Shown here one piece after another: positions 842 through 59,821 of a stretch of 64,000 bases of DNA (position 1 is the first letter of the stretch; every line of letters starts with the position of its first letter). This stretch comes from a phage. Where the stretch lies: the sequence record PZ386976.1; one strand, given 5' to 3'. The position numbers were made by a program, and so were the translations under genes. Below the pieces are notes generated by a model. It did not search any database and had not been told where the DNA came from. It was given only the letters and a program-made list of their open reading frames with translations.

Positions 842-1225
842 TCAAATACCTGTGCAGCTTCTGTTTTCTAAGAAATATTCAACACCGTACATAGCTTTTT
901 GCATCAAATCTTCTTTAAACTGGATACGATGGTTGAGCATAGCCTGTACATCAATATCATCATGGTGCTTCTCTTTAATATTTGCAGATTGCAGGAAATA
1001 CTCTGCAAGAACACGATATTGATAGTCAGTTACCTTATCAGTCATCTCTGTCAAAGACTCTTCAGAGATTGGTTTAAGTAACTCACCATTAGTTAGAGCA
1101 ACACCTTTTACAATCTGGCAAGTGTCTTCTGGAACACCTGATAAGTCCACATTTGGAAGTTCTGTTGCATTGACTGGTAAATTTATTGCCATGACCATTG
1201 CAGCAGCTAATAAAATCTTTTTCAT
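842..1225 (-). CDS. hypothetical secreted protein
   Basis: N-terminal signal-peptide-like MKKILLAAAMVMAINLPVNA. Confidence 0.5.
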   Translation of the reverse strand: MKKILLAAAMVMAINLPVNATELPNVDLSGVPEDTCQIVKGVALTNGELLKPISEESLTEMTDKVTDYQYRVLAEYFLQSANIKEKHHDDIDVQAMLNHRIQFKEDLMQKAMYGVEYFLENRSCTGI

Positions 1226-1775
1226 AATGACCTCAAAGTTATATTAAATTTTGTATTACATTGAGTATAAAAATAAGCTATAACACCTGACTTGTCAACA
1301 GATTTTATAGCTTATTTGGCAGATTTTTTATAAGGCTACTGCCATCCTTCCATACCAAACCCTACCGAACAGAACCATGCTTTGCCATACTGGACAACAC
1401 CTGACCAGACATCACTTAAAAACCCTTTTCAAAGACTCTTAAGTGATGTAATCGAATTTTAATGTAGCTCCGATTAACTACCCATACCTTGCATTACTTC
1501 ACCAAACCGTACATTACTTCACCAAACCATACATTACCAGACCATGCCACACCTGTCCAAACTCAACCTCATTAAAAGACCCTCTTTAAAGACCTTTTAA
1601 TAAGGTAAGTCTCATTTTTATGTAGTTGAGACTAACTACCCATACTTTACCTTACCATACCAGACCTCACCCCGCCTTACCGCACCAGACAGCACAATGC
1701 AGTACAGTACCTTATTAAAAGACCCTGTTTAAAGACCTTTTAAAAAGGAGCCTCCGAAGAGGCTACCTAGTCAAC

Positions 1776-2216
1776 TTAGAAAGGTTTTCTACGTTGCTTG
1801 TTAATGTTAGCTTTCATAGCAGCTAAGTGGTTTTGCTGTTCAATCAGTCGTGAGCGTTCTTGATGGCTAAGTGCCATAGTGTTCACATTCTCAATAGCTT
1901 GAGTGGCTTGCTTTAAAGCTCGACCAATCTTACCAGACATTTTACGTTTTGCAATAGTTGCTTGATGTTTAGGTTCAACCACACGATAACCAACACCCAT
2001 TGAAGCAACCAGATAAATCTTCTCTTCTTTAAGAAGCTTCTCAATAAACTTCTCAAGTCGGTTTAGACGTGTAAGCGCATAAGCCTTCATTTCATCTTCG
2101 TACTTAACAATGTCACCTTGATAAGTTGGCTTCACAATACCTAAGAAGGTATCCATCTCAGAATGTGATACAGTGTCACCGTAACTAAACTTTGCTGCTA
2201 ATGCTTTTGTATTCAT
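1776..2216 (-). CDS. hypothetical protein
   Basis: 146 aa ORF, no recognised motif. Confidence 0.45.
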   Translation of the reverse strand: MNTKALAAKFSYGDTVSHSEMDTFLGIVKPTYQGDIVKYEDEMKAYALTRLNRLEKFIEKLLKEEKIYLVASMGVGYRVVEPKHQATIAKRKMSGKIGRALKQATQAIENVNTMALSHQERSRLIEQQNHLAAMKANINKQRRKPF

Positions 2217-2218
2217 AA

Positions 2219-2824
<606 letters not shown>

Positions 2825-3225
2825 TTAGTTGATTGTTAAGTTGTTTGTAAAGAACCCTCAACAGAAGACTCTTTAGAAACTTGGTAGATTTTTAACGTGG
2901 CTACTACCATCCACCCATACCTCACATCACCATACCATACCATACCTGACCGGACCTAACCAAACTCCACAGCACCATACATCACATCACACAGCCTTAT
3001 TAAAAGACCCTGTTTAAAGACCCTTTAAAAAGGTAAGTCTCATTTTAATGTAGCTGAGACTAACTACCCATACCAAACAGCACCGCACTATGCCTTACCC
3101 CACCTCACCGAGCCTCGCCCCACATCACTTAAAAACCCTTTTCAAAGACTCTTAAGTGATGTTGGTGAGTACCCGTTGGTTTATGCTGCTCAGTATACTC
3201 ACCAAATTTTCTATGTCAACAACTT

Positions 3226-4329
3226 TTACTCATAATCCCTAATAACTAGGCCAACAGGGAACTGTAAAGACCCCTTACGAGTCATCTTCTGGAACTGAAC
3301 CGTTAAAGGCTTCCCGATAAACTCTTCAGGATGCTCAGCCAGATACTGCTTTTTCTCATGAGTGGTTTTCCATGAGACATCTACAAAGACGTTAGGAAGG
3401 GTCTCTACAACGAACTTGCCATGACCACGTTTATCAGTCTTTACACCAGTCACTTTAAACTCTTCAGTGTGCATCTTCTTATGCTTAATCAAGAAGTATG
3501 AACGGTGACCGCACTCATAGAAAGATTCTTCAGAGATTGAACGGTACATTGCACCTTCAAACTTAGCCTCAACCCACTTATCATGAGCTTCATCAAACTC
3601 TTCCCAAGAATTTACACGGCGAGACTTAATAGGAACAACTTTACAGCCGTCTCTAAAGTCATTTAATGGTGAAGTCTCAATAATATCTCTACGCTCAGGC
3701 CACGTTTTAGTACTGTCACAGATATCATACCAGTAGAACTTAAGTAAGTGTCTGTCAGGATTGTCTTCATTTTTAATCATGGAGACAATATCTTCTAAGT
3801 CCCACCCATGAGCATAAATCTCTCCATCAAATTCATCAACATCTTTGTGGAGCCTTAACATTGCCATAATGTCAGGTATTAGTTCAGTAGGGATTTTGTA
3901 AACAGTATTCTCACGAGAATATGCTGTAAATACACTGCCAATACTTAAGTGCCTTGAAATCCTACAACGTACACCATCAAGCTTCGGTTGAGCATCAGCA
4001 GGGAACTTCAGATACTTTGCATGACTAACCTTTGCAGCATCATGAGCAAGCTGTACACCTACCTTTTCAGTATTCTGTGCAGACTCTTTTGTGTAAGCAT
4101 AACCTTTACGGTCAACTTGCTTTTTATACTTAGCAGCAACTTCAAAGAGAGCTTGCTGTTCAGCGTTACGCTCATTCTTTTTACCGATGTTTTTAGGTTC
4201 TGCTGTATACTCTTCAAACATCATCTTGCCATTTTCTTTACCGTAGGTTGTAATAACTTTGTCACCTACAGCAACACATGACCAAACGTTGAAGGAACCA
4301 TCTTTATTTTGTTTGTATAGAATTGTCAT
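3226..4329 (-). CDS. ATP-dependent DNA ligase
   Basis: ORF 3226..4365; adenylation motif I KLDGVRC (KxDGxR) and downstream ligase-like motifs; start set at internal Met (MTILYK) abutting upstream gene. Confidence 0.7.
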   Translation of the reverse strand: MTILYKQNKDGSFNVWSCVAVGDKVITTYGKENGKMMFEEYTAEPKNIGKKNERNAEQQALFEVAAKYKKQVDRKGYAYTKESAQNTEKVGVQLAHDAAKVSHAKYLKFPADAQPKLDGVRCRISRHLSIGSVFTAYSRENTVYKIPTELIPDIMAMLRLHKDVDEFDGEIYAHGWDLEDIVSMIKNEDNPDRHLLKFYWYDICDSTKTWPERRDIIETSPLNDFRDGCKVVPIKSRRVNSWEEFDEAHDKWVEAKFEGAMYRSISEESFYECGHRSYFLIKHKKMHTEEFKVTGVKTDKRGHGKFVVETLPNVFVDVSWKTTHEKKQYLAEHPEEFIGKPLTVQFQKMTRKGSLQFPVGLVIRDYE

Positions 4330-4330
4330 T

Positions 4331-4522
4331 TTATTCCTCTGAGTGATACCAAGTATTGCAAGCATTACATGCGTAAAGCTCTAAGTCATTTTTATCAGGT
4401 TTATGAAAGCAGTTTGCTCCGCAGTGGCAACGAAACGGCTTTCCACCAACTGTCAGGGTGAAGGATTGAACCTTTCCATCAGGAGTTCGTACAGCATTTT
4501 TATGCTTATCTTCTTTGTTCAT
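4331..4522 (-). CDS. small zinc-ribbon protein
   Basis: 63 aa with CHCGANC...CNACN cysteine pairs. Confidence 0.4.
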   Translation of the reverse strand: MNKEDKHKNAVRTPDGKVQSFTLTVGGKPFRCHCGANCFHKPDKNDLELYACNACNTWYHSEE

Positions 4523-4725
4523 TTTCTCTTACCACCAATCTCTACGTCAATCACTTGAACATCACCAGCAACATCAAACTTATGAATGATGCTTTCCACA
4601 GTGTAAGTCCAACTATCAATGCGAACTAACTCACCTTCTCGTGGGACGATTGGATTACGTTGAGCTACAGTTGTAGTGGAGTGAACAACATCATAACAAT
4701 AGATATAGTTTACTAATACTTCCAT
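4519..4725 (-). CDS. hypothetical protein
   Basis: ORF 4519..4824 trimmed to internal Met to avoid overlap with lipoprotein gene. Confidence 0.3.
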   Translation of the reverse strand: MEVLVNYIYCYDVVHSTTTVAQRNPIVPREGELVRIDSWTYTVESIIHKFDVAGDVQVIDVEIGGKRK

Positions 4726-4735
4726 CGTGAAAACC

Positions 4736-4993
4736 TCACTCAATAACCGTGGTATGTGATTGACCATTTTTGCCATAGCTATAAGATGTTGTTGTTTGAG
4801 AGTTTGGACATCTGACAACAACAATATCCCTGCTTATAGCGTCACCATTGAGTTTGTAGATTTTGCAGTCTTGCATCTCTGGAGGTAGGCTGTAAGAAGC
4901 ATCTTTGTTTTCATAAGAAGGGTTGCAGCCAGCCAGAAAAATTACTCCAAGTGCAACCATTACTTTCACACAACTCTTAATCTTATTGTTCAC
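4736..4993 (-). CDS. putative lipoprotein
   Basis: signal peptide plus lipobox LAGC near N-terminus. Confidence 0.5.
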   Translation of the reverse strand: MNNKIKSCVKVMVALGVIFLAGCNPSYENKDASYSLPPEMQDCKIYKLNGDAISRDIVVVRCPNSQTTTSYSYGKNGQSHTTVIE

Positions 4994-5125
4994 GATAGTC
5001 TACCTCTCTGTATGTTTTTAAATAGTGGGTGATGAGTTCTGGTAATTCACTACGTTTAACGTTTGAACGAAGAAGTGTCCAGTCAAAACCTTTACCAACC
5101 CTTCCCCAGAGACTGTACATTTTCT

Positions 5126-5359
5126 TCATAGCAACTCCAGAATATCAATACGTTCACCCTTAAGAACACCTGTACGGTCTCTTGCAATCTTACCATCAAC
5201 GATAAGGATATGCGCGACCTTTAAAGCCTCACCATTAAAACCTTTTACGAACTTGCTAGGCATCACTACAATGGACATCTCCTGAATCAACTCTGGAGTA
5301 TAGCAATTGTCGTGAAGTTGCTGAATAACGTCTGCAAGTGTCATTTTTGATGTCTCCAA
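5126..5359 (-). CDS. hypothetical protein
   Basis: 77 aa ORF. Confidence 0.35.
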   Translation of the reverse strand: METSKMTLADVIQQLHDNCYTPELIQEMSIVVMPSKFVKGFNGEALKVAHILIVDGKIARDRTGVLKGERIDILELL

Positions 5360-5550
5360 TACTCAATGTCAATAAGTTCTTGTGCAATGCTTTTCAGATT
5401 ACCTTTCAAGAAAACCTTCTCAGAACCTGAAAGAGATGAATTGTCAATTAACCTGTTCATTCTCTCAAACAACTTCTGCTTACGGTTCTTGATAGTTTCC
5501 TTTGAAGCACCTTTCATCATCGCTGCATGGGTTCTTCCACGGTGGCTCAT
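5341..5550 (-). CDS. hypothetical protein
   Basis: 69 aa basic ORF. Confidence 0.35.
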   Translation of the reverse strand: MSHRGRTHAAMMKGASKETIKNRKQKLFERMNRLIDNSSLSGSEKVFLKGNLKSIAQELIDIEYWRHQK

Positions 5551-5611
5551 AAGCCCTCCTATACAAGATATAGTATAAGGTACTCTTCCATGAGCACCTT
5601 GTCAATACTAG

Positions 5612-6168
5612 TCAGTGTACTTCAAGCCAATTCTTACCAACTTTACCAGTACCAGTTACAAGCGTTTCCTCCTTAAGCCCTAAGTTTCTTGATGCCTGAC
5701 CATACATCCAGTCAATCACTGCTTTAACATCCTGTGTCATCTCTTCTGGGCACTCCCAACTATTCTCATCGTGGTATGCTAAAAGCAATCTAGCACCAAT
5801 AGCTGGTTTTCGACCATTCAGCTTTGTAAGACCCTCTTCACAAGTCCTTCTACAAGCAAGGTTGATGGCTTCATTCTGAACCTGACTTTCCGAACCCATG
5901 AGCAAGTAATTTAAAAGTTTGTGCGGAGATTTACACCACAACCATGCACCTGCTACCTTTACAAAACCACCCTTAGATATTGCAGCAGTCTTACCAAACA
6001 CCTCTTCAAGAGCCTTCTTAGTGGCTTTGAAGTCTGCTTCTAAATTATCTATCAACTTCTTAATTTTAGGGAGGCGTACAAAGTATGTTTGCTTAGTTAA
6101 AGCACCTTCCTCAGTTGTAGATGCTTTAATCGTCTTAGCAAATTTCTCATCGCCAGCCCCGAACAATA
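5612..6168 (-). CDS. DNA polymerase (family A, T7-like), 3' exon
   Basis: begins ...LFGAGDEKF (second half of motif B YGxxYG) and contains motif-C-like AYHDE; in-frame continuation of upstream exon if an 805 nt intron is removed. Confidence 0.7.
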
Positions 6169-6973
6169 CATCTGGTCAATACACTCGCAAGGTGTACCAG
6201 TTCTCTTATGAACTTCTCCGCATTTCTACGGAGTGTCGGACTATATCACGTAGTAGTAGTAATACTACCGTTGCACTTGGGAATGGTCATTAGCTTACCA
6301 CCCTACTCTACTCAGTTCATACGTTAAGTATGCTTTTCGATAGTCTCTGAACGTTTCTCTGTTAGGAATCTCTATAGTTATGTTATTTGCTTAGGTAGTC
6401 AATTGCCCTTTGCATATTATCAATGCTATCTGCAAGTAACCCCAAAGCTCTATTGCAATTGTGGCACAACATGCCTCTTACTTTTCCGGTTTTGTGGTCA
6501 TGGTCAACGACAAGTTTAGCCTTATGCCGTGAACTATTCATGATAAAACCTTCACCGCCACAAATTTGACATTTGTAATCACAGTTACGAAGTAGGGTCT
6601 CAACCTCTTCTCTTTCTAAACCATATGTTCTCAGGTAGTAATTCTTAACTCTACCTTTCTCTCCACAATGCGAAGAACAATAAACTTGCCTTGCTGTTCT
6701 AGGCATGAACACCTTCTCACAGCTAGGACATTTCTTAGTAAGAACCCTATATTCTGCTCTTCTGTCAAATTTTAATACGCAACTTCTGCACCGTTTTTGA
6801 TTGTATTGGTACGGTTTAAACTCCGTGCCACACTCAGTGCATAATCTCTCTTCGTAACCTGCCATTGTCTCTCTCCTTTGTTTTAGGAGTCCTAACAGAG
6901 ACTTCGCTGCTGATTACCATATCTTTACAGACTTAGGCTTCCAGCAATTCACAACGTTTTACATGCGCCACTG
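6169..6973 (-). mobile_element. putative group I intron interrupting the DNA polymerase gene, carrying an HNH endonuclease ORF
   Basis: polymerase frame breaks inside motif B; exon 1 ends in U and intervening segment ends in G (minus strand); joining restores ...AKNGIYALLFGAGDEKF, which resembles the T7 motif B region. Confidence 0.5.
6383..6865 (-). CDS. HNH homing endonuclease (intron-encoded)
   Basis: Cys-rich zinc-binding N-terminus and HNH motif VDHDHKTGKVRGMLCHNCNRALG. Confidence 0.65.
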   Translation of the reverse strand: MAGYEERLCTECGTEFKPYQYNQKRCRSCVLKFDRRAEYRVLTKKCPSCEKVFMPRTARQVYCSSHCGEKGRVKNYYLRTYGLEREEVETLLRNCDYKCQICGGEGFIMNSSRHKAKLVVDHDHKTGKVRGMLCHNCNRALGLLADSIDNMQRAIDYLSK

Positions 6974-9146
6974 ACGCATAAATGCCATTTTTGGCTTTCT
7001 TACGGCCTTTACTAATTTCCTGAAGAAGATTTGTATCCTGAGTGGCTCGACAGGTCAAGATATCTTCCTCTTTATTAAGGCTGAAGTAGATGCTATTTAA
7101 AGTATGCGCATCAGTTCCTGAGTACACCACGTACAAGTCATTTTCCGAATCATAATGCAAATACTTGTCAATCTCTGGGTTTAGATACTGGTCAAAATGT
7201 TTGCAATAGTATCTGCCATCCTCTTGTTTGACAAACTCAACCTCTTCTTTACCCTCTGTCACTGCTTTAGTGAACTCCTTATCACCCATAAAGTTGCACA
7301 GCAGCACAAGTTGGGCACTATTCATATCTGCTGAAACAATATTAGTTCCTTCCTCACAAGTCCACACCTCCCTCATAGGCGCTCCATAGACAGCAGCACC
7401 AGACGGTACGTTTACAATACCATATTGTGTCATACGTCCAGTTGAAGTACCAAACACCATTGCACCAGCACTAAGGCGACCATCAGGACGAATCTGGTTA
7501 AGCCAACCTTTTTCATCATCCTTTGAGTTCTCAATAGTTCTGCGTCGGTGCATCAAAGTGTAGTATTTCGCAATCTTCTGTCCAAGCTCACCTTCAATCG
7601 TATCATAAGATGATTCAGTAAGTTTTGGTGAAGTACGGATTAAGCAAGGTTCAAGCAAATCTGTGTATTTCTTCACAGACCAGTTATGCTCAATGTACTG
7701 TACACCTTCATGTTCAACATAACTCAAACCACACCGCTCAACCATTTCCTGCCACTTAGGATGTTTTGTAATCATCTTTTTATTGTCTTTGAAACGACAA
7801 ACTTTGACAGGGCGACCATCTGAGTCTTTCTTGTAGTTCCAGTCATCTGGAATCCAACCAACTGATTTCAAGTAGTCTTTAACAACTGCTACCTGAGTCA
7901 TACGAGAAACTTCAAACTCAATTGGTGTATATGGTGCATCAATCAAACCTGTGTAGCGACTTGACTCAAGTTCAAAGTGGTTAACAACGTGGCTGTTATA
8001 GTACTTCACAGTTTTGACTGTTTTTACTGGCTTCCAGTCTTTGCACTTCTTACCAATCTTTGCATTCAACTCATTGCAAATTGCACGAGCATCCTTCATT
8101 GCTACAAAACCTTCCTTGTACTCTTCACCAGTTACAGTGTTGGTTGGTGTATAGCAATTCCTTTTTTCAATGTTAAAAATCTTTGTAGTTGGCTTACCAA
8201 ATGGTTTGATTTCATATGTTTGCATCTCACCGTTACGCACCTGCTGACGATACTTTGTCTTAGGGTACTTGGTAATTCTCTTCAGTCCATCTGCATGACC
8301 AAATGTTTCAACATACTCATTCCAAGCTTTTGCAAACTCTTCTCCAGTGACTTTACCTTTGGTCTTAATAGTTGGAGGTAGATGCGGTTCAACCTCTGAA
8401 GCAAGCTCATTAGTCAATTTGTCAAGTTCCTTCACATGGAACTCCATAAGCTCTTTATCAGCTTTCCAGCCATTAATAGCTTGTTGACTCATCCAGAAAG
8501 ATGTCTCTTTAGCTCGCATGTAAGTCTCATAAGTGTCTATACCACACTTCTTAAGCTTGAGATACTCGTTATCAAGTGCCCGTTTAGTTTTGGCGTTAAT
8601 ACGGATATCTTCTACAACACGAGTGAAGATTTCTGCATTCCACACACCCCAATGTTCAATCTCTGGTTTACGGACACCAACACGAGCACCCCATGCAGCC
8701 AAACCATGAGCACCTTTATAACCCTTTGGAGTTGGTCTATCCATCCACTGAACACGAGACTGGATAAGAGAATCCTGAAAGAAATTACTCCACGGCTTAC
8801 ATTTTGGATTATCAAAGTTCCATAAATCCGGTGCAATGTGATTGAAGACCCACCAGTCATAACCGAGGCCGTTATGGATACAAAGTCGTTTTGCCTTTAA
8901 CGCAAACTCAACACCTTCACGTAAACCACCCTTGATGTACTTAGTGTACTTGTGACCGAGGATAGGCTCATCTGTAAAGACCCATACAGGTGGCTCTTCA
9001 TCGTCAGATTTATAGTCTGCAAAAGCCATTACGTGAACTTTAGTGAACTCAAGGAGTAAACCATCAGTCTCTGTATCACCAACTAAATGTAAGTTTTTAA
9101 AATCTACGTTTTCCATTTTTACTCCCTCTAAAATCATTAACCTCAT
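6974..9146 (-). CDS. DNA polymerase (family A, T7-like), 5' exon with 3'-5' exonuclease domain
   Basis: Exo motif DTETDGL, T7-like FNHIAPD/AWG region, motif A SADMNSAQLVLL, start of motif B RKKAKNGIY; ORF then diverges into intron sequence. Confidence 0.8.
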
Positions 9147-9373
9147 ACATTACTGCAAAAAATTATAAAAAGCAAGTTGACAATGCACTTGACAAGGTGT
9201 TAATCTTTGCGAAGTGGGTTTTTACTTAAAAGGTTACTTAACAGTTTAACTATACAGATACTTTAAAACTCTTAAAAGATTATTTAATAGCTTTTAAAAA
9301 GCTTTAAAGTATAACGTATAGAATACGTTAAGATAAAAGATTAAAACTTAATAGCTACTTAAAAGAGGCTTAC

Positions 9374-9796
9374 ATGCAGAAAATGTTTGTTCACCCAGAC
9401 ATAGCTGACTTTGTTAGAGCTTTGCAGAAGTTGGAAGAACTTGACATTGCTGCTCAACGGGAATATGCTCACCATCACAGGAGAATGGTTGATATACAAC
9501 ATGAAATAGAGTTGTCTGAAGACTATGAAGATGACTTAAAATGCTCTGTATTTGAGCATATGAAAGATGTTGCTACAGCGAGACGTAAAGCTAAAGACAC
9601 AGTTGCTTTACTAGATTCTCTTAAAAAGAGGTTGCAAAGTGGTACAGACCTGTGTAATCTAGCATCACTGATTAACGATGTTGAAACTTCTTGGGATAGG
9701 CACTATTATCCACGTTCTGAAAAGACACTTGACTTTTCTTCATCCGAAAACTTAAAATGTTCTAGAAAGAAACTTAACCAACTGAGAGAGAAATAA
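9374..9796 (+). CDS. hypothetical protein
   Basis: first gene of rightward operon after divergent promoter region. Confidence 0.45.
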   Translation: MQKMFVHPDIADFVRALQKLEELDIAAQREYAHHHRRMVDIQHEIELSEDYEDDLKCSVFEHMKDVATARRKAKDTVALLDSLKKRLQSGTDLCNLASLINDVETSWDRHYYPRSEKTLDFSSSENLKCSRKKLNQLREK

Positions 9797-9797
9797 T

Positions 9798-10598
9798 ATG
9801 AATATCGATGTAGAAAAGATGCTTGAAGAGAAAGGTGTTGATGAAGCATTCTTAATCAACGCCGTAGAAAGCATGGCTATGATTCTTCGTGGTAATAACT
9901 ACACAGAACAGTTTATGCCTGCAAGCTATAACTTGCCTGAAGACAAGTCTGATAACGGTGCTTTTGCAGAACAGGTTAATATGATGTTGTGTGATAAAAC
10001 ACTTGCTTTAGCATCTATCGTTGTAGGTGTTGATGCTCTTGCAGAGTTCATTTTTTATGAGATGCAGAAAAATGACTATATCTCCCTTAACTCTGAAGAA
10101 AAGGACTTGTTACCCTCATTAGGTGATAATGAGTTAGTTTCCATGTTAATTTCATCAACAAGTTCTGTTATGGCTGCTCTTGAGAAGCGAATGGAAGAGA
10201 AGCTGTCACGATATGAAAAACTTGATTGGGGTGTAGAAGAGTTAAATCCACGAATCCAAGAGATTATCCAGCAAACTAAAGACTCTTTAGAAGAAGCTGT
10301 GAAAGATGATTCCGTAGCTGATGTAGAACCACTACAGGTGAAGGTTGCTCTGATGATTCCAGCTATTTCTACAATGATGAATATCGTTGCACTAATCCAA
10401 CTTTCTCAGATGTTGGGAGCAAGCATTGAGTTCATTGAGGAGATGACTGGTGGTGTCAGTATGCAAGCAATCAATGATGTTTTGGTAAACATTGGTGCTT
10501 CAATCATTGAAGAGAAACTACGCATTAACTTCGGTGATGATTTTGTGAAGCAAATCTCAGCTATGGCTGAAAAAGAGTCTGCTGAGCAACTGCACTAA
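9798..10598 (+). CDS. hypothetical protein
   Basis: 266 aa acidic ORF. Confidence 0.45.
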   Translation: MNIDVEKMLEEKGVDEAFLINAVESMAMILRGNNYTEQFMPASYNLPEDKSDNGAFAEQVNMMLCDKTLALASIVVGVDALAEFIFYEMQKNDYISLNSEEKDLLPSLGDNELVSMLISSTSSVMAALEKRMEEKLSRYEKLDWGVEELNPRIQEIIQQTKDSLEEAVKDDSVADVEPLQVKVALMIPAISTMMNIVALIQLSQMLGASIEFIEEMTGGVSMQAINDVLVNIGASIIEEKLRINFGDDFVKQISAMAEKESAEQLH

Positions 10599-10659
10599 GC
10601 CTTTATAAATCTTACAAGCCTCCTTAGTTGGGGGCTTTTTAGTAATTAAGGGAGGAAGA

Positions 10660-11403
10660 ATGAGTAGTATTATAGCATTTACTGGAAAGGCACGTTCTGG
10701 AAAAGACACCTCATGTTCTATTGTGAAGAACATCTTAGAGGATGAGTATGGCTACAGTGTTGAAGTAATGGCCTTTGCAGACAACCTTAAACTATCTGCA
10801 TCAAAGATATTTGACTTGACTTGGAATGACCTGTACGGTGAAACTAAAGAGACTCCACAGGTTTTTGACTTATCATATCCTGAACTGATGTTTAAAGTTA
10901 CGGAAGCTATGGAGTTTACCTTCAGAGATGAACGTTACCATATGGACTTCAAGCTTATGTCAGAGCTAACCGGACGATTAATCATGGAGCTTAAGAAGGT
11001 TGCTAAACCAACTCTATTGACACGTCTGGGGTTTAGCAAAAAGTATAAATTCTCATCAAGACAAATTCAACAGATTTGGGGTACTGAAGTTGTCCGTAAA
11101 GTAATGGGCGACAAGTTCTGGTCTAAAGACCTTGAAAAAAGAATGGTTAGATTCTATGAAATGTGCTCACTTAGAAATCAATATGGTTTTGTCTTAATCA
11201 GTGATTTAAGATTTGACTCTGAAGCTGAATGGCTGAGTAGATTTGCACACCAAACTATTGAAGTAAAAAGAGACAATGTGGACAAAGTTTCATCACATGT
11301 TTCAGAAAATGGGATTTCTACAAAATATGAGCGTGACATTATTCATAATAATGGTACTCTTGCAGACCTTGAGAACAAGCTAAGAGCCATCATTAAAGTT
11401 TAA
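10660..11403 (+). CDS. deoxynucleoside monophosphate kinase-like P-loop kinase
   Basis: N-terminal P-loop AFTGKARSGKDT as in phage dNMP kinases. Confidence 0.55.
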   Translation: MSSIIAFTGKARSGKDTSCSIVKNILEDEYGYSVEVMAFADNLKLSASKIFDLTWNDLYGETKETPQVFDLSYPELMFKVTEAMEFTFRDERYHMDFKLMSELTGRLIMELKKVAKPTLLTRLGFSKKYKFSSRQIQQIWGTEVVRKVMGDKFWSKDLEKRMVRFYEMCSLRNQYGFVLISDLRFDSEAEWLSRFAHQTIEVKRDNVDKVSSHVSENGISTKYERDIIHNNGTLADLENKLRAIIKV

Positions 11404-11411
11404 AAGAGAGA

Positions 11412-11612
11412 ATGAAGATGAGAGTAAAAGACAATTTTAAAGTTATTGACCACCGTTTAGTGGAACTCTCATCTCTTTCCAATGAGGTAATGATTGAACG
11501 CCTTAAGAGAGTTGAATCACGAAGGAAAGAGATTGCAGATGAAATTCATGAACTGGACAAGATTGAAAATGGATTGAAGGCAGAACTACAACGAAGAGGT
11601 GCTAATGTCTAA
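11412..11612 (+). CDS. hypothetical coiled-coil protein
   Basis: 66 aa ORF. Confidence 0.35.
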   Translation: MKMRVKDNFKVIDHRLVELSSLSNEVMIERLKRVESRRKEIADEIHELDKIENGLKAELQRRGANV

Positions 11613-13590
11613 AGGTCGTAAATTGAAAGAGGCTGGTCAGTTTATTGGTCATTGTGCATGTCCACGTTGTGGTTCATCAGATGCTGGTTCAATCTATCAT
11701 CATGACGATGATTCTTATTCGATGACTTGCTTTAGCTGTAACAAAGGTTTCCCAGAGTGGGATTTTGATAAAGGACAAATCGTGAGCACTTATTCTACTG
11801 GTTCAGATAACAAAAACCGTACTTTCCGTGGAATGGATTTAGACGATGTAAAAGAAAACCTAGAAGCAATGGACTTGAAAGACAGGAAGATTCCTGCAAA
11901 AGTCCTTGAACGCTTAGGTATCAAGGTTGACATTGATAGTGATGGTGAAATTGATGCACATTTCTATCCAACTTACAAACGTAATGAGGATGGCAAGCTA
12001 GAACATGTTGGCTACCGTGTTCGTCACCGTTACCCAGAAGACCACCCAAAAGAACATCTACGTGGAAAGTTAAAAGACTTTTCAGGTGGTGTTGGAGACA
12101 TTAAAGGTGAACTGGCAATGTTCGGTTCATGGATTGCTCCAGAAGGTGGTAACCGTCTATTCATCTGGGAAGGTGAGATGGAATGTGCGACAGCAATCTA
12201 TATGACTTCTCTTGCGATTAAGGACAAGTCTCGTCGTAAGAATTACTGTCACGTATCTGTTCCATCAGGTGCAAACATCAAGTCTATCAAAGACAACTAT
12301 CAGTACATTACATCATTTGATGAGATTTACTTGTGCTTTGATAATGATGAAGCAGGTGCTAAAGCTACCAAAGAGGCTGCTGGTATCCTACCTATTGAGA
12401 AGGTTCGTTTATTCCAGTATCCAGAAGGTGTAAAAGACCTTAACGAGTGGTGGACAAAGTTCTATAAAGAGAAAGACACAGTTCTGGAAGGATTTAAGCA
12501 GCGTATCTACAATGCACCTCGTTACTGCCCTGCTGGTATCAAGAACTTCGCAGATGGTTTTGAGGCAATGAAGAACCGTGGTCAGATTCCATTGATTCCT
12601 TTCCCAGAATCTTTCGGAGATTTGAACAGGTTGACTTATGGTGGTTATGGTTTAGGTGAGATTACAACTATTGCAGCACCATCTTCAGTAGGTAAGTCAG
12701 CTTACACTCGTGAGATGATTTATTCAGCTTGGAAAGAAACTGATTATAATATCGGTGTAATTCCTGTAGAAGATACCTATGAAGAGTTGATGGAGATGCT
12801 CTGTGCAATCCACCTGAGCAAACAGATTTCTGAGATTCCTTATGATGAACGAGATTGGGATGAATTAAAAGGAGCACACGCAGAACTATCTAAAGGTCGT
12901 CGTATCCATATCGTTGACCATCAAGGGGCAATTGACCAAGATAACCTGCTGGAATTTGTTGACTATCTTGTTAATAGTTTAGACTGTAAGATTATCATTC
13001 TTGACCCTATTACGTTGGCTCTGTCACGTTCAGATACGGATGAAGAGGAAGTTTTGTCTGAGCTATTGCGTCGTTGCAAACGCTACCAGTATGCACAGGT
13101 GAACGTCTGTCACGTTCGTAAGAGTGCAGGTGGTCAGAAGGCTAATTCTGAAGGTGGGGATATCTCTGAAGAGGATATTAAAGGTTCTGGTGCGTATTTC
13201 CAGATTTCTATGAACAACATCCTGTTAATGCGTAACAAGGTTGACCCAGACCCTGTTAAGAAAAACTTGACAAAAATCAAGCTAACTAAGTGTCGTCGTC
13301 ATGGTAAGTCAACAGGTATTGCTGGTCATACTTGGTACAATCCAGACACAGGACGTCTTATCAAAGCTTCTGGATGTGGTGTTGACATTGATGGTGCAGC
13401 AGAAAATATCCGTCAACAGTTTGGTATTGGTGAAGCTGAAGACCATTATGACGACTCTTTACCTCATTATGAAGATGAAGTGTTTGACCGTGAGACTGGT
13501 GAAGTCTATACTGAAGAACAGCGTCAAAGCTCAACGATTCCACCTGTATTAAGTGAGGATGCAGATGACTGCCCGTTTGAAACTGAGTGA
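11599..13590 (+). CDS. DNA primase-helicase (T7 gp4-like)
   Basis: N-terminal zinc ribbon CxxC...CxxC, central primase-like region, C-terminal Walker A-like APSSVGKS. Confidence 0.75.
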   Translation: MLMSKGRKLKEAGQFIGHCACPRCGSSDAGSIYHHDDDSYSMTCFSCNKGFPEWDFDKGQIVSTYSTGSDNKNRTFRGMDLDDVKENLEAMDLKDRKIPAKVLERLGIKVDIDSDGEIDAHFYPTYKRNEDGKLEHVGYRVRHRYPEDHPKEHLRGKLKDFSGGVGDIKGELAMFGSWIAPEGGNRLFIWEGEMECATAIYMTSLAIKDKSRRKNYCHVSVPSGANIKSIKDNYQYITSFDEIYLCFDNDEAGAKATKEAAGILPIEKVRLFQYPEGVKDLNEWWTKFYKEKDTVLEGFKQRIYNAPRYCPAGIKNFADGFEAMKNRGQIPLIPFPESFGDLNRLTYGGYGLGEITTIAAPSSVGKSAYTREMIYSAWKETDYNIGVIPVEDTYEELMEMLCAIHLSKQISEIPYDERDWDELKGAHAELSKGRRIHIVDHQGAIDQDNLLEFVDYLVNSLDCKIIILDPITLALSRSDTDEEEVLSELLRRCKRYQYAQVNVCHVRKSAGGQKANSEGGDISEEDIKGSGAYFQISMNNILLMRNKVDPDPVKKNLTKIKLTKCRRHGKSTGIAGHTWYNPDTGRLIKASGCGVDIDGAAENIRQQFGIGEAEDHYDDSLPHYEDEVFDRETGEVYTEEQRQSSTIPPVLSEDADDCPFETE

Positions 13591-13846
13591 TAGCTATAAA
13601 AGAGAGGGGTTCATACCCTTCTTTGAAGAAAAAAGTTTAAATGAATTTCAGGAAGAGTGTTTGACAAAGGTTGATAGGTTCTATAGAATGCTCTACATGA
13701 AATGTGATGGAGGCGTTGAGGTAGAAGAAAAGTTCCATCACAGTATGATAACAGTCACTATTACTATACCTCGACATAATATTGGTTGGCTGTTTATAAT
13801 TAAAGAAAATGTGTTTGAATATCAAGTATATCGGAGAATATCATGA
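13553..13846 (+). CDS. hypothetical protein
   Basis: 97 aa ORF overlapping end of primase-helicase. Confidence 0.3.
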   Translation: MRMQMTARLKLSDSYKREGFIPFFEEKSLNEFQEECLTKVDRFYRMLYMKCDGGVEVEEKFHHSMITVTITIPRHNIGWLFIIKENVFEYQVYRRIS

Positions 13847-13999
13847 AACACTCTAAAGCATTTGAACAAGTTTTTGGGGATTCCTTAAAAGCCACTGCTG
13901 GTAAACCAGCAAAATACTATGAAGAGAAGCGTGTAAGAACTGGAAAAACTGCACGTAAAGCAGCTTCTAAAGATAAGCACAACTTCCAGTAATTAATGT

Positions 14000-14028
14000 T
14001 TGACAATAGAGTATCAACAAATTAGAAT
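14000..14028 (+). promoter_or_regulatory. sigma70-like promoter (TTGACA-17-TAGAAT)
   Basis: ttgaca at 14000-14005, 17 nt spacer, tagaat at 14023-14028, upstream of SSB-like gene. Confidence 0.4.
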
Positions 14029-14064
14029 TGGTACTCTTCATAAATTGAGATAGAGGTTTAAATA

Positions 14065-14922
14065 ATGTCTAAAGTTGTTAAAATGAAAGCTCCGGTAGAG
14101 AAGTACAATGGTACTGAACGTCAAACTCTGCGTTACCTTCTGAAAGATGTCTGGTTTTATTACCTGAACACTTCACCACGTCCGGGAAAAGGCAAGTCCA
14201 TTGATAAGAAATTCCCAGGCAAAGACTGTAACTACAGCGTTTCAATTCTGGCAGAAGATGGTAACAAGCTGTTTAAAGAGTTTACTAAGTCTAAGAAAAA
14301 TCCAGAAGGTTGGGATAAAGTTACTACTGAAGCAGTTGATGCAGATGACTTCGAAGAGAAGTTTGGTTGCAAACCACCATTTGAAGCAGATACTTACTAC
14401 ATCTTGAAAGTAAGTCGTGCAGCAGCTTATAAAGATGGTGCTGTGTGGACAGCTAAACAGTCATTCCCTGTTATGCTTATTGAAGAAGTAAATGGTAAGC
14501 GTGTAGCTGTTAAACAGCCGATGAAGAAAATCAAAGCTCAAGCATCTGATAAACATGAAGATGACAAGAACTATGATGTAATTCATCCAGATATTGCAGT
14601 TGGTAACGGTTCTTTTGGTAGTGTGATTCTTTCTACTCACTTCTACACTTTTGAGAACAATGTTCTGACAAAACCTATTCAGGAACAGTTTATCATTGAT
14701 ACTCTTGTACCTTACACTGGTGGTAATGGTGCTAATGGCGAACCTGAACTGGATGAAGACGAACTGGCTATGCTTGGTCTTGATGGTGTTGAAGATAACG
14801 GTGAAATCACTGAAGAAGACGCAACAGACCACAAACCTTCGAATCACTCTGATGATGGCGATGATGAAGACTTGCCAGACCCAGATGACGAAGAAGATGA
14901 AGACTTCGATACAGAAGACTAA
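14065..14922 (+). CDS. putative single-stranded DNA-binding protein (T7 gp2.5-like) with acidic C-terminal tail
   Basis: 285 aa; long Asp/Glu-rich C-terminus; position between primase-helicase and FEN. Confidence 0.45.
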   Translation: MSKVVKMKAPVEKYNGTERQTLRYLLKDVWFYYLNTSPRPGKGKSIDKKFPGKDCNYSVSILAEDGNKLFKEFTKSKKNPEGWDKVTTEAVDADDFEEKFGCKPPFEADTYYILKVSRAAAYKDGAVWTAKQSFPVMLIEEVNGKRVAVKQPMKKIKAQASDKHEDDKNYDVIHPDIAVGNGSFGSVILSTHFYTFENNVLTKPIQEQFIIDTLVPYTGGNGANGEPELDEDELAMLGLDGVEDNGEITEEDATDHKPSNHSDDGDDEDLPDPDDEEDEDFDTED

Positions 14923-14984
14923 TCTCTAAAAGTTACTTTAAAGCCCTGTACTTAGTATGGGGCTTTTTCATATGGAGAGTCACA

Positions 14985-16031
14985 ATGGAGAAGTATACGC
15001 TAACAAAACTTCCCGATTCAGTTACACATGTCTTTATTGACTCTGACAGTATTGCCTATAAAGGTGCTTGTGTAGTTGAGAAAGCAAAATATAAATACGT
15101 CAATAAACTCACAGCAGAAGAATCTGAATCATTTGATAATGCAAAAGATGCTGCAAGATGGTTAACAGACCAGAGAATCTTTGTGGAAGAGCTTGGCCTA
15201 ACATTTGATGAAGATGAATGGGAAAGACAGACTTGGAAAGAAGCTAAGAGTGAAAAAGAAGCTATCATGGCTACTCAGCAGGTTCTTCAGGAATGGCTTA
15301 AGGTTGTTGGTAAAGAAAGAACTTGGGTAGGTTACTTAACAGAGAAGGGTGTACATAAACATAAAGACATTAAAGGTCTTGAGCACCAATATCAAGGTAA
15401 CCGTAAAGAGGCTATCACACCAACACACTTAGTCGCTTGTCGTGAATACCTTCTGTCAAGACCAGAGTTCAAATTGATTCTTGATGGATTTGAAGCTGAC
15501 TCTATCGTGATTGCTAAAGCTGAAAAGATGGGTAAAAAGGCTGCCTTAATGAGCATTGATAAAGACCTTCGCCAAGCTGAAGGCACTTACTGCATTGATA
15601 TGACCTATGAAAAATCACCTTTAATCTTCATTGCTGATAACAACGTTGGTGAAATTTGGGATTGTCCAATAAAATCGACACCAAAAGCTAAGAAGACAGT
15701 TGGGGTAGGTTTTAAATTTCTTTGCTATCAAGCTGTGGCTGGCGACAATGCGGATAATTATTTTGGTTTAAAGGGTGTTGGTAAAGCTACTGTGATGAAG
15801 GCTCTTGAAGGGAAAACAACTTACAAAGAGTGTCTTGATGCTATCTATGAACTTTATGCTAAGAAAGAGTCCTACACTTATGTCTCGTGGGATGGTCAAA
15901 CAGTTACCAGAACACCTTTAGAACTAATGCAGCAACACTTCTTCTTAGCTTATCAGGAAAGAAATAAGAAAGATGATTTTACTTTTGATAAGTATGGGTG
16001 GACACCAAATGTTAACTCAACAAACTCTTAA
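14985..16031 (+). CDS. 5'-3' exonuclease / flap endonuclease
   Basis: acidic metal-binding clusters FIDSDSIAY, GFEADSIV, AVAGDNADNY and helical-arch GLKGVGKAT. Confidence 0.7.
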   Translation: MEKYTLTKLPDSVTHVFIDSDSIAYKGACVVEKAKYKYVNKLTAEESESFDNAKDAARWLTDQRIFVEELGLTFDEDEWERQTWKEAKSEKEAIMATQQVLQEWLKVVGKERTWVGYLTEKGVHKHKDIKGLEHQYQGNRKEAITPTHLVACREYLLSRPEFKLILDGFEADSIVIAKAEKMGKKAALMSIDKDLRQAEGTYCIDMTYEKSPLIFIADNNVGEIWDCPIKSTPKAKKTVGVGFKFLCYQAVAGDNADNYFGLKGVGKATVMKALEGKTTYKECLDAIYELYAKKESYTYVSWDGQTVTRTPLELMQQHFFLAYQERNKKDDFTFDKYGWTPNVNSTNS

Positions 16032-58222: not shown

Positions 58223-58299
58223 CTCTGTTTAGCTCAGCTTGGTAGAGCGTTCCGTTTGGGGCGGTAAGGCCGGAGGTTCAAGTCCTCCAACAGAGACCA
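58223..58299 (+). tRNA. tRNA-Pro: tRNA-Pro (anticodon TGG)
   Basis: manual cloverleaf: acceptor ctctgtt/aacagag, anticodon loop ttTGGgg, T-arm ggagg-ttcaagt-cctcc, CCA encoded. Confidence 0.6.
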
Positions 58300-58316
58300 A
58301 ATTTAAAGGGGTTACT

Positions 58317-58673
58317 ATGAGATTTTTAAAAGAATGTCCAGTTCATGGTTTAACTGAACATAGCATTCATAAGAATGGTAACGCCGGTAATAGAGTAAAT
58401 TGTCTAAAATGTTGTGCATTAAGGACAAAACTTAGAGAGGATGCCAATAGGGAGAAAGCATACAAGTTTTATGGCGATAGTTGCAAAATTTGTGGCTATA
58501 ATAAATGTAAAAATGCTTTAGAATGGCATCACCTTAACCCAAACGAAAAAGAGAATACACCATCAAAAATTATGGGTGCATCTTGGGAAAAGGTTAAAAA
58601 AGAACTTGATAAATGTGTTTTGCTCTGTGCTAATTGCCACAGAGAGGTTCATAGTGGAATTACAACGGTTTAA
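58317..58673 (+). CDS. HNH homing endonuclease within tRNA cluster
   Basis: Cys-rich zinc-binding elements and HNH motif EWHHLNP...LLCANCHREVH; ORF 58239.. trimmed to MRFLKE because upstream part overlaps tRNA-Pro. Confidence 0.6.
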   Translation: MRFLKECPVHGLTEHSIHKNGNAGNRVNCLKCCALRTKLREDANREKAYKFYGDSCKICGYNKCKNALEWHHLNPNEKENTPSKIMGASWEKVKKELDKCVLLCANCHREVHSGITTV

Positions 58674-58674
58674 T

Positions 58675-58749
58675 GTCGTAGAAGGCAAATGGTTAGCCAC
58701 CTGACCTTCAATCAGTTGCTCGCAGGTTCGAATCCTGTCTACGACACCA
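58675..58749 (+). tRNA. tRNA, anticodon tentative (TTC, Glu?)
   Basis: acceptor gtcgtag/ctacgac, T-arm gcagg-ttcgaat-cctgt, CCA encoded; anticodon loop ccTTCaa has atypical C33. Confidence 0.45.
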
Positions 58750-58753
58750 GTTT

Positions 58754-58832
58754 TGACAGAAGACCAATTACAGCAAACTTAATCTTATTCATCTGAAGGT
58801 AAATCGGACAAAGAAGAGATTTGGTCTGGTCA
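58754..58832 (+). ncRNA. conserved bulged-helix module 1 (outer stem tgac/gtca, 5' AGA bulge, inner stem agaccaa/ttggtct, 3' G bulge)
   Basis: one of four copies with covarying outer stems; encloses AT-rich loop. Confidence 0.35.
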
Positions 58833-58840
58833 TTAAGAAT

Positions 58841-58917
58841 TGCGGGTATAGAGAAAGGGCGTCTCACATGTCTCATTAGCATGGTATCGGCAGGTTCGAC
58901 TCCTGCACCCGCCTCCA
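58841..58917 (+). tRNA. tRNA-Met/Ile2 (anticodon CAT), initiator-like unpaired 1:72
   Basis: acceptor (t)gcgggt/acccgc(c), anticodon loop ctCATta, T-arm gcagg-ttcgact-cctgc, CCA encoded. Confidence 0.5.
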
Positions 58918-58920
58918 ATT

Positions 58921-58986
58921 TTGCAGAAGACCGTATTCAGCAACAAACTACTTTTTGCGGATAAAAGAAAAAACACGGTCTGGCAA
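58921..58986 (+). ncRNA. conserved bulged-helix module 2 (outer ttgc/gcaa, inner agaccgt/acggtct)
   Basis: same architecture as module 1 with compensatory base changes. Confidence 0.35.
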
Positions 58987-58994
58987 TGTATTAA

Positions 58995-59071
58995 GGTTAG
59001 GAAGCACATAAGGTATGTGCGGTCGCCTGTTAAGCGAATGGCACAGGGTTCGAATCCCTGACTAACCGCCA
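58995..59071 (+). tRNA. tRNA-Asn: tRNA-Asn (anticodon GTT)
   Basis: acceptor ggttagg/actaacc, D-arm gcac-ataaggtat-gtgc, anticodon arm gtcgc-ctGTTaa-gcgaa, T-arm caggg-ttcgaat-ccctg, CCA. Confidence 0.7.
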
Positions 59072-59140
59072 AATTTAGGAGAGAAGCGATTGCTCACCGA
59101 TTTGTAAGGTGCAAGTCCTTAGCCTGAATAGAAATTAAAT

Positions 59141-59228
59141 GTGTCGTTATCCCGTAGATGGTAGCGGTGGGGACTGTAAATCCCTTGTCATTGAGACTCG
59201 GTAGGTTCGACTCCTACACGGCACACCA
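59141..59228 (+). tRNA. tRNA-Tyr: tRNA-Tyr (anticodon GTA), long variable arm
   Basis: acceptor gtgtcgt/acggcac, anticodon arm gggga-ctGTAaa-tccct, long variable arm, T-arm gtagg-ttcgact-cctac, CCA. Confidence 0.65.
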
Positions 59229-59233
59229 ATAAA

Positions 59234-59311
59234 GGTTATGTAGTTTAATTTGGTTAAAATACTCCCCTGTCACGGGAGATGATGAGGGTTCAAATCCCTT
59301 CGTAACCGCCA
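59234..59311 (+). tRNA. tRNA-Asp: tRNA-Asp (anticodon GTC)
   Basis: acceptor ggttatg/cgtaacc, anticodon arm ctccc-ctGTCac-gggag, T-arm gaggg-ttcaaat-ccctt, CCA. Confidence 0.7.
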
Positions 59312-59369
59312 ATTTTGAGAGGGCTATTTAGCCCCTCCCTTAAAGGGTTCTTACGAGTATCCTTTAAAG

Positions 59370-59451
59370 GAGCAGAAGACCAAATACAGCAAGAACGTAT
59401 GAAAATTTCAAGCCAATTTAATTTTGAAAAATTTAAAACTTGGTCTGGCTC
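59370..59451 (+). ncRNA. conserved bulged-helix module 3 (outer gagc/gctc, inner agaccaa/ttggtct)
   Basis: same architecture, compensatory outer-stem change. Confidence 0.35.
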
Positions 59452-59458
59452 AACAAAT

Positions 59459-59595
59459 TTACAGAAGACCGTTTACAGCAAAACTTAAACAATCTATTTC
59501 TCGGTAAAGAAAAGGCGAAGGTTCGATTCCTTCACTCGGCAGATGTCGAGTTGGTGTAATGGTAGCACTTAAGATGATAAACAACGGTCTGGTAA
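59459..59595 (+). ncRNA. conserved bulged-helix module 4 enclosing a circularly permuted tRNA-like domain; candidate Y-RNA-like RNA
   Basis: outer ttac/gtaa, inner agaccgt/acggtct; enclosed 59517-59568 has T-arm gaagg-ttcgatt-ccttc, 7-bp hairpin actcggc-agat-gtcgagt (acceptor-like) and D-arm-like gtg-taatggtag-cac in permuted order. Confidence 0.35.
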
Positions 59596-59736: not shown

Positions 59737-59741
59737 TTAAT

Positions 59742-59817: not shown

Positions 59818-59821
59818 AAAT

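Follow-up and report, generated by a model that had tools for sequence, protein, structure and literature searches.

Two intergenic regions of a Felix O1-like phage are very probably guide-RNA arrays of a type II VIPR system

We analysed a 64,000-nucleotide (nt) stretch of phage DNA (sequence record PZ386976.1; hereafter the window) and focus here on two of its intergenic regions, region A (1226-1775) and region B (2822-3225), which lie either side of two open reading frames (ORFs) at 2219-2821 and 1776-2216. We conclude, with a confidence of roughly 95%, that these regions are arrays of guide RNAs (vrRNAs) of a type II VIPR (Viral Interference Programmable Repeat) system, flanking its genes vipr and vap in a Felix O1-like phage. 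VIPR itself is not new, having been described in 2026 preprints (bioRxiv 10.64898/2026.04.26.720920 and 10.64898/2026.04.26.720927), and the locus in the window is of type II, in the SUSP1 clade. According to these preprints, VIPR consists of Vipr, a minimal RAMP protein, an accessory gene, vap, and vrRNAs built of 9-16 YNNGG repeats and an invariant 3' tail containing a pseudoknot. Vipr is described there as a RAMP homologue of small size (~20 kDa) that has a single RRM, a G-loop and a thumb. The experiments described were in phage SUSP1 only, where vrRNAs of ~100 nt were expressed, co-purified with Vipr and silenced transcription of matching DNA; guides of the SUSP1 clade are mostly aimed at satellite phage in E. 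coli genomes, and the authors propose that VIPR predates CRISPR.

RNA-guided recognition of DNA by VIPR has been reported only recently, and the system was rediscovered here by a purely sequence-based scan, from GGYNN periodicity alone. What is new is that five guides, with predicted targets in a satellite, are annotated for a Felix O1-like phage, and that orphan guides were observed in related phages. We add evidence that conservation between phage genera is far higher for the vipr-vap cassette than for the genes on either side of it, and that repeat-mediated deletion leaves guide-only relatives. The first 8 kb of the window is 90-95% identical to many Felix O1-like myoviruses (Felixounavirus; E. 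coli, Salmonella). Felix O1-type phages serve in typing and biocontrol.

On the minus strand, each tract in the two regions is a phase-perfect run of 12-17 GGYNN pentamers in which GGY is conserved and NN is hypervariable. Scoring the window for phase-coherent GGT-N-N over 8 pentamers, with a cut-off of at least 19 of 24, identified only five places, all in regions A and B and all on the minus strand (scan windows 1342-1391, 1484-1573, 1627-1701, 2907-2991 and 3060-3129). Tract maxima were 19-23 of 24, as against 16-17 for the best of 20 shuffles and of the plus strand. The homologous loci of 23 related phages supplied 65 unique tracts and 926 pentamers, among which the first position was G in 79%, the second G in 92% and the third a pyrimidine in 93% (T 84%, C 9%), with N4 and N5 near random. 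Tracts in these relatives ran to 8-22 pentamers (mode 13-14) with no phase-breaking indel, and were almost wholly different between phages whose flanking genes are more than 90% identical, while the element after each tract was conserved.

Such tracts might be read as a neutral, degenerate pentanucleotide microsatellite, or as recombination scars of a mobile cassette. Local duplications in multiples of 5 nt (GGTAT three times; one duplication of 20 nt) fit this reading, as does Felix O1 itself, which lacks vipr-vap and is joined across two identical copies of a hairpin element, HpA. The decay is position-specific, however: GGY is kept while NN is free, a pattern of selection and not of neutral drift, and the guide-target matches described below are far above shuffled controls. 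We consider a neutral origin barely credible; repeat-mediated deletion and slippage probably do shape the array, as a turnover mechanism and not as its function. A comparable arrangement is reportedly that of the PeSL (promoter-early stem-loop) cassettes of T4-type phages, said to have been described by Arbiol et al. in Genome Biol Evol in 2010, where short repeated promoter/stem-loop modules flank optional genes and recombination between them appears to gain or lose the intervening genes, much like the indel at HpA that distinguishes Felix O1 from the window. PeSL modules are regulatory or recombination modules without a guide function, whereas repeat-mediated indels are incidental in the VIPR locus.

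The search for a partner protein of GGYNN tracts led to Vipr. We scanned IMG/VR for six consecutive GGTNN units and obtained at least 120 loci, many of which were not microsatellites but degenerate GGYNN tracts with short conserved motifs between them and tract lengths stepping in multiples of 5 nt. Immediately upstream and on the same strand, 18 of 30 unrelated array loci carried an ORF of ~200 amino acids (aa) belonging to a single family. This family and the window ORF 2219-2821 are both phrog_4652, which has more than 500 homologues without Pfam annotation and a C-terminal motif typical of RAMP glycine-rich loops. Compared with solved structures, the family profile gave one match, PDB entry 36pp, 'SUSP1 Vipr protein' (E 4e-80). 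The two genes between the regions are accordingly annotated as follows.

2219-2806, minus strand: vipr, encoding a 195-aa RAMP-family protein (phrog_4652, E 4.6e-97)
1776-2216, minus strand: vap (vipr-accessory protein), 146 aa, phrog_5926, directly after vipr

The mechanical ORF call for vipr begins at a GTG at 2821, whereas its homologues begin at the ATG at 2806. The window protein is identical to SUSP1 Vipr (36pp) at 191 of 195 residues (97.9%; E 6e-128), and none of the four substitutions (N18A, P119Q, V190I and I191M) falls at a listed contact residue. The twelve contact residues that we checked are all kept with the same numbering (H17, K33, R39, E71, M72, K82, K88, R138, C173, D177, W178 and R179); in the cryo-electron microscopy (cryo-EM) preprint they touch G1, G2 and Y3 of the guide, the non-target strand, or the backbone of the target strand next to the base that is skipped. 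An AlphaFold2 model of the protein (pLDDT 94.8) found Csm3 and type VII Cas7 as its best PDB folds in Foldseek (E 1.6e-5, TM ~0.5). Vap, for which a role in DNA binding is predicted, is identical at 145 of 146 residues (99.3%) to the SUSP1 ORF in the same position next to vipr, and it matched nothing among Pfam and PDB sequences. Several ideas about the repeats were dropped once the protein had been identified: an R-loop replication origin, two-quartet G-quadruplexes, ToxI-like antitoxin repeats, a sponge for tRNA CCA ends or anti-Shine-Dalgarno sequences, and Chi-like or RecA-preferred GT-rich DNA.

As observations on the wider family, very diverse VIPR arrays of up to 17 units occur in unrelated IMG/VR contigs (L041, L049, L051, L063, L072, L078, L115, L147 and others in our locus collection). 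In some of them the conserved separators are only 3-5 nt long (GGCAG, GGCTA), and the units differ in length by steps of 5 nt. Another gene family, phrog_15946 (~160-176 aa), is a conserved neighbour of the arrays at 6 IMG/VR loci and is probably another vap type.

Vipr invites comparison with the backbone of Class 1 CRISPR effectors, the Cas7/Csm3 filament on crRNA. Both have a RAMP fold with a glycine-rich loop and a thumb, place one protomer per fixed step of RNA, and use a programmable guide capped by a conserved handle. VIPR differs in its step (5 nt versus 6 nt), in pairing two of every five guide bases with a 1-nt skip on the target, in having no cas1/cas2, repeat-spacer array or nuclease, and in being encoded by a virus. 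A CRISPR-Cas array, with identical 24-48-nt repeats, unique spacers and cas1/cas2, was not found at this locus; what is conserved here is a set of tails and hairpins ~35-40 nt long, and periodicity extends to the 'spacers' themselves.

Each tract is followed by one of two types of conserved tail, giving five predicted vrRNA units.

3032-3129, minus strand: vrRNA-B1, a tract of about 12 pentamers (3129-3070) and a type-1 tail (3069-3032)
2883-2996, minus strand: vrRNA-B2, a tract of 16 pentamers (2996-2917) and a type-2 tail (2916-2883), GGGUGGAUGGUAGUAGCCACGUUAAAAAUCUACC
1604-1711, minus strand: vrRNA-A1, a tract of 14 pentamers, the five 5' ones degenerate (1711-1642), and a type-1 tail (1641-1604)
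1446-1568, minus strand: vrRNA-A2, a tract of 17 pentamers (1568-1484) and a type-1 tail (1483-1446)
1318-1412, minus strand: vrRNA-A3, a tract of 12-13 pentamers (~1412-1352) and a type-2 tail (1351-1318), GGAAGGAUGGCAGUAGCCUUAUAAAAAAUCUGCC

The NN series of vrRNA-B1 is GA GG GA TC GA GG AA AT GC GC TT AT, and its type-1 tail reads GGGUAGUUA-GUCUCA-GCUACAUUAAAA-UGAGAC-UUACC. The tail of vrRNA-B2 is identical to that of SUSP1 vrRNA1, and the tail stem of vrRNA-A2 is altered to AAUCGGA/UUCGAUU. Degeneracy is greatest in the tract of vrRNA-A3. With 16-17 pentamers, the two longest tracts lie at or above the published range of 9-16, but both are degenerate in their 5' pentamers. A direct repeat of 17 nt, CATTACTTCACCAAACC, which the first-pass annotation of this DNA had pointed out, is indeed present at 1492-1508 and 1512-1528, where none is expected by chance; its copies are spaced 20 nt, or four pentamers, apart, and it is a 20-nt (four-pentamer) duplication within the vrRNA-A2 tract.

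The tails have the marks of structured RNA. In an alignment of tails every position of the hairpin helix was paired (100%), and at 3 of its 7 pairs both partners had changed; the variants of this 7-bp stem differ at three pairs by compensatory changes, and the 12-nt loop is nearly constant. The loop can pair with a GUAG just upstream, which would form a pseudoknot, and the cryo-EM preprint reports the vrRNA tail pseudoknot of SUSP1 as resolved. Type-2 tails show compensatory changes in both helices (AAGG/CCUU to GUGG/CCAC, and GGCAG/CUGCC to GGUAG/CUACC), in two sequences only.

These tails also bear on the initial suggestion that the shared boxes and hairpins form a distinct promoter class, for instance a novel promoter or leader at which a phage-specific transcription or sigma factor binds upstream of minus-strand genes. 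Both regions do precede minus-strand genes, and region B has a promoter on one side and the next start codon on the other. The shared box (minus strand GTATGGGTAGTTA) occurs in exactly three copies, at 1475-1487, 1633-1645 and 3061-3073, and when the same boxes were sought elsewhere, including at late or structural genes, none was found in the 64-kb window outside the two regions. Confinement to the cassette speaks against a promoter class, as the 64 kb carries dozens of operons; it does not refute a function for the boxes, because the elements belong to one self-contained cassette. Moreover, the boxes recur two or three times per region, each after a hypervariable tract, the N12 hairpin stem covaries as expected for RNA, and identical elements are the resolved 3' tails of SUSP1 vrRNAs. 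Box and N12 hairpin belong to the conserved 3' tail of the vrRNA and are not promoter elements; nothing else here looks like a promoter except two ordinary sites of sigma-70 type, one at either edge (3219-3192 and 1298-1270). We assign the promoter class next to no probability.

Tract and tail together also resemble a TRAP-like attenuation leader, in which a ring protein bound to GGU triplets 2 nt apart would switch hairpins controlling the downstream genes. There are 11-17 triplets with 2-nt spacers, and overlapping alternative pairings occur at the tract end (GUAG/CUAC versus GUCUCA/UGAGAC). As in the trp leader of Bacillus, a protein oligomer would read many short conserved triplets with 2-3 variable nucleotides between them on single-stranded RNA. 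However, the partner is a RAMP protein, which assembles into a helical filament and not into an 11-mer TRAP ring, the NN positions hold target information that an attenuator would not need and that TRAP spacers lack, and the 'alternative' pairings are the pseudoknot resolved by cryo-EM. TRAP attenuates its own operon and does not target DNA. The triplet is GGY and not (G/U)AG, and no TRAP (PF02081) match was found by Pfam among the five ORFs from 336 to 2821. An attenuator is thus extremely improbable, and we return to the guide-RNA reading.

If the locus works like the near-identical SUSP1 system, as the preprints describe that system, the minus strand would give rise to RNAs of ~100 nt, each with a GGYNN run and an invariant 3' tail bearing a pseudoknot. 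Vipr protomers would polymerise on the vrRNA, one per pentamer, with GGY flipped out and sequestered and NN exposed. The filament would read double-stranded DNA such that each NN pairs with two target bases and the third is skipped, and an R-loop triplex would form and block transcription. The likeness to SUSP1 extends to the order of the locus (ligase, vrRNA or vrRNAs, vipr, vap, vrRNA array, next gene), the pentamer code, both tail types (identical or near-identical) and the class of target, an E. coli satellite. The two differ in genus (Suspvirus for SUSP1, Felixounavirus for the window) and in array size (one upstream and three downstream vrRNAs in SUSP1, two and three in the window), and all five variable regions in the window are unlike the four SUSP1 guides.

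Searching with the vrRNA tail sequence returned matches in 114 E. coli chromosomes and led to an island of ~11 kb (4839-16000 in locus L149; further loci L148 and L157-L166). This highly mosaic satellite occurs in 545 of 5426 complete E. coli genomes; its genes include a large serine recombinase, baseplate, tape measure, HNH, Dam methylase and a small recombinase, and it is integrated at wrbA/ymdF, at tonB/yciI or in a DUF72 gene near yecD/yecN. A vrRNA-like unit lies in the satellite in 114 genomes; neither vipr nor vap was present in the 12 satellite loci checked.

We scanned 12 satellite variants (238 kb) with the five guides at skip lengths of 0-3, using 300 shuffled guides as the null. 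Only the 1-nt skip rose above background; skips of 0, 2 and 3 stayed at it. Four guides matched at 80-95% of their NN positions. Guide B1 matched the satellite large serine recombinase gene at 21 of 22 NN, and B2 matched a second site in the serine recombinase gene (24/30); A3 matched the antisense strand of a gene for a 185-aa hypothetical protein (20/24), none of the 300 shuffles being as good in any of these three cases. For A1, the match was in a DNA adenine methyltransferase (Dam-type) gene (21/26; 1 of 300 shuffles as good). For each guide, several satellite variants were matched in one and the same gene and at an identical codon position, and at the two sites where the frame was checked, those of B1 and A3, the skipped base was the codon wobble position. 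With the first two satellite loci alone (L148 and L149) no match exceeded the null; matches appeared with the 10 further variants. No self-target of the guides was found in the 64-kb window. In 13 vipr-positive relatives, 29 of 38 unique guides had an NN match of at least 80%. Judged from these sequence matches, four of the five guides would be aimed at satellite genes; the most likely function of the locus is therefore to repress a satellite by which the phage would be exploited.

Further candidate targets were set aside. Exact 9-NN seeds located IMG/VR targets in about the number expected by chance (4 loci for B1, 3 for A1), one cluster of them in a provirus that had no match in any E. coli genome, and we took them all as chance matches.

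The target matches also bear on transcription termination by Rho, for which the plus-strand (NNRCC)n would be an ideal rut site ending antisense transcription, or the C-poor sense RNA a means of escaping the factor. The plus strand offers a YC dinucleotide every 5 nt over ~60-85 nt and the sense strand is C-poor, as this idea would have it. It leaves unexplained, however, the hypervariable NN with their matches to satellite genes, the strict linkage to vipr in unrelated phages and the conserved structured tails; a role for Rho is very unlikely as the explanation of the tracts and would be a side effect at most.

The guide-RNA interpretation accommodates most of what had first been noticed at this locus. 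All features listed by the first-pass annotation were found where it had placed them and are non-random, including the shared hairpins (the AAAAGGTCTTTAAANAGGGTCTTTTAAT hairpin three times and the CACTTAAG...CTTAAGTG hairpin twice; chance expectation 0 for both), and regions A and B are further linked by long, imperfect direct-repeat families common to both (D5, D6, D9 and D11). Its suggestion of small RNAs on the minus strand was right in kind, the tracts being vrRNA guide genes of the VIPR system. The strict 5-nt periodicity had escaped it, and the interval it gave, 1300-1770, takes in the downstream array and misses the upstream array at 2883-3158. The strand-biased 'CA-rich' composition arises because it is the reverse complement of the GGYNN repeats, with GC skew down to -0.55 to -0.59, yet to call the plus strand 'nearly G-free' was an overstatement: G makes up 11.8-12.9% of the two regions and 5-12% of the tracts, as against 20% of the whole window. 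A G content as low as 2 or fewer per 60 nt is confined, within the two intergenic regions, to two stretches, one inside a tract (1473-1539) and the other at the promoter end of region B, extending into the ligase gene (3189-3248).

The remaining elements of the locus are hairpins between the units, two promoters and a terminator.

3126-3158, minus strand: HpA, 5' of vrRNA-B1, CACUUAAGAGUCUUUGAAAAGGGUUUUUAAGUG, -9.9 kcal/mol, z -3.4 (plus strand -3.4 kcal/mol)
1413-1445, minus strand: second copy of HpA, identical to that at 3126-3158
2999-3026, minus strand: HpB, between vrRNA-B1 and vrRNA-B2, AAAGGGUCUUUAAACAGGGUCUUUUAAU
1714-1741, minus strand: HpB, 5' of vrRNA-A1, by exact-copy search and folding
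1571-1598, minus strand: HpB, between vrRNA-A1 and vrRNA-A2, by exact-copy search and folding
2849-2874, minus strand: third hairpin, related to the others, AAAGAGUCUUCUGUUGAGGGUUCUUU, just before the ribosome-binding site of vipr, -6.5 kcal/mol
3192-3219, minus strand: promoter P1 (sigma-70-type), TTGACA-16-TATACT, 11 of 12 matches, directly after the DNA ligase stop codon
1270-1298, minus strand: promoter P2 (sigma-70-type), 10 of 12 matches, serving the downstream 127-aa ORF and annotated as a promoter in phage AYO145A
1742-1766, minus strand: intrinsic terminator after vap, GGUAGCCUC-UUCG-GAGGCUCC with UUUUU, -13.6 kcal/mol, z -3.6

Annotated protein-coding genes from 1 to ~9150 are on the minus strand, and the locus sits between the DNA ligase gene upstream and the 127-aa ORF (842-1225) downstream; the neighbours include an HTH (helix-turn-helix) regulator, and the 127-aa protein is secreted. 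Along the minus strand the upstream half reads P1, HpA, vrRNA-B1, HpB, vrRNA-B2, the third hairpin, vipr (2806-2219) and vap (2216-1776), after which come the terminator (1766-1742), HpB, vrRNA-A1, HpB, vrRNA-A2, HpA, vrRNA-A3, P2 and the 127-aa ORF. P1, whose homologous site carries a promoter annotation in AYO145A, would drive the upstream vrRNAs and vipr-vap. The six hairpins, which lie between vrRNA units and before vipr, form one family (AGUCUU...AGGGUU) rich in A-U and G-U pairs. They fold at -3.8 to -9.9 kcal/mol on the minus strand, with gained G-U pairs, whereas the plus-strand values reach only -0.1 to -3.4 kcal/mol, which points to a minus-strand RNA; possible roles are a processing site, a weak terminator or an insulator. 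Beside P2 we noted a 13-bp inverted repeat (AAATAAGCTATAA at 1317-1305 and TTATAGCTTATTT at 1283-1271) with the P2 -35 hexamer in its loop and a T-run after it, which could be an operator or a terminator of the last vrRNA overlapping P2.

Several points weigh against assigning the two regions to VIPR. Expression, RNA ends and function of the window vrRNAs would be as in SUSP1, from which they are carried over, and the preprints are not yet peer reviewed. The six AU/GU-rich hairpins are left unaccounted for by the VIPR model in the available text of those preprints (bioRxiv 10.64898/2026.04.26.720920 and 10.64898/2026.04.26.720927). Region A sits between a strong intrinsic terminator and a downstream promoter, and no sigma-70-type promoter was found for its three vrRNAs. 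The pseudoknot helix (GUAG/CUAC) is invariant in type-1 tails, so that covariation neither supports nor contradicts it. Guide A2 had no significant target in the 12 satellites (23 of 32 NN; 15 of 300 shuffles as good), and the matches of B2, A1 and A3 are imperfect, at ~80-83% of NN in the 12 satellites sampled.

The cassette appears to move between phages. Vipr and Vap are 97.9% and 99.3% identical to their SUSP1 counterparts (window 1776-2806 versus 4032-5062 in the SUSP1 locus, L167), whereas the flanking ligase is 88% and the 127-aa ORF 32% identical. As Vipr and Vap are far more conserved than their flanks between genera, this suggests recent horizontal transfer of the vipr-vap cassette within the Ounavirinae. 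In the window, a 41-nt identical direct repeat around HpA (1413-1445 and 3126-3158) brackets vipr-vap and the inner vrRNAs. In Felix O1 (L004, 2500-2530), the sequence upstream of HpA copy 1 is joined to that downstream of copy 2 and everything between is absent; this junction at HpA suggests repeat-mediated loss or gain of the cassette. Felix O1 has a single vrRNA unit (L004, 2436-2717) without vipr-vap.

Guides without vipr are not confined to Felix O1. Within ~4 kb on each side (less for L022), neither vipr nor vap was found in 9 of the 23 related loci (L005-L027), nor in Felix O1. One or two well-formed vrRNA units were kept in 8 of the 9 (L005, L007, L012, L014, L017, L020, L024 and L025, around 3680-3884) as well as in Felix O1; the L022 sequence ends just upstream of the anchor gene, and it cannot be judged. 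Phage BPS15S6 has two well-formed vrRNA units (L168, 32430-32849), and its complete 87.6-kb genome contained no Vipr or Vap by tblastn or hidden Markov model. Among 10 orphan guides, five had matches in the E. coli satellite that covered 80-95% of their NN positions. Elements with guides alone may make use of Vipr provided in trans, although we regard this as doubtful. On such a scheme, the orphan vrRNAs would be loaded by the Vipr of a co-infecting vipr-positive phage, and interference would be redirected or shared; alternatively, they might be decoys that titrate the Vipr of a co-infecting phage. The ordinary alternative is that orphan guides are relics of recent deletion. We found no discussion of orphan guides in the available text of the VIPR preprint, in which the word 'orphan' occurs 0 times.

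Annotation of such regions in public records is limited to 'hypothetical protein', 'repeat_region' or 'DR_4'. Rfam at gathering thresholds found only tRNAs in the whole window, and for positions 1150-3300 at E up to 10 only chance-level matches to small nucleolar RNAs and small RNAs. Pfam matched only the HTH regulator among the five neighbouring ORFs (336 to 2821). Literature on Felix O1 and wV8 contained no discussion of repeats in regions A and B, and the PhageMaP/Bas63 paper contained nothing relevant to them. A role as pac or terminal repeats was rejected: in UAB_Phi87, whose ends were mapped experimentally, the locus lies mid-record at ~58 kb.

Two other features of the window were recorded. 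A cluster of 25 tRNA genes occupies 58223-63556 on the plus strand (25 by ARAGORN, 24 by Rfam at gathering score). Between 40599 and 46151, direct-repeat families of 48-103 nt recur between plus-strand genes, and every repeat combines a ribosome-binding site with a GC-rich hairpin and a box resembling a promoter; these correspond to the 57-bp and 39-bp repeats of the Felix O1 genome paper (PMC3185647).

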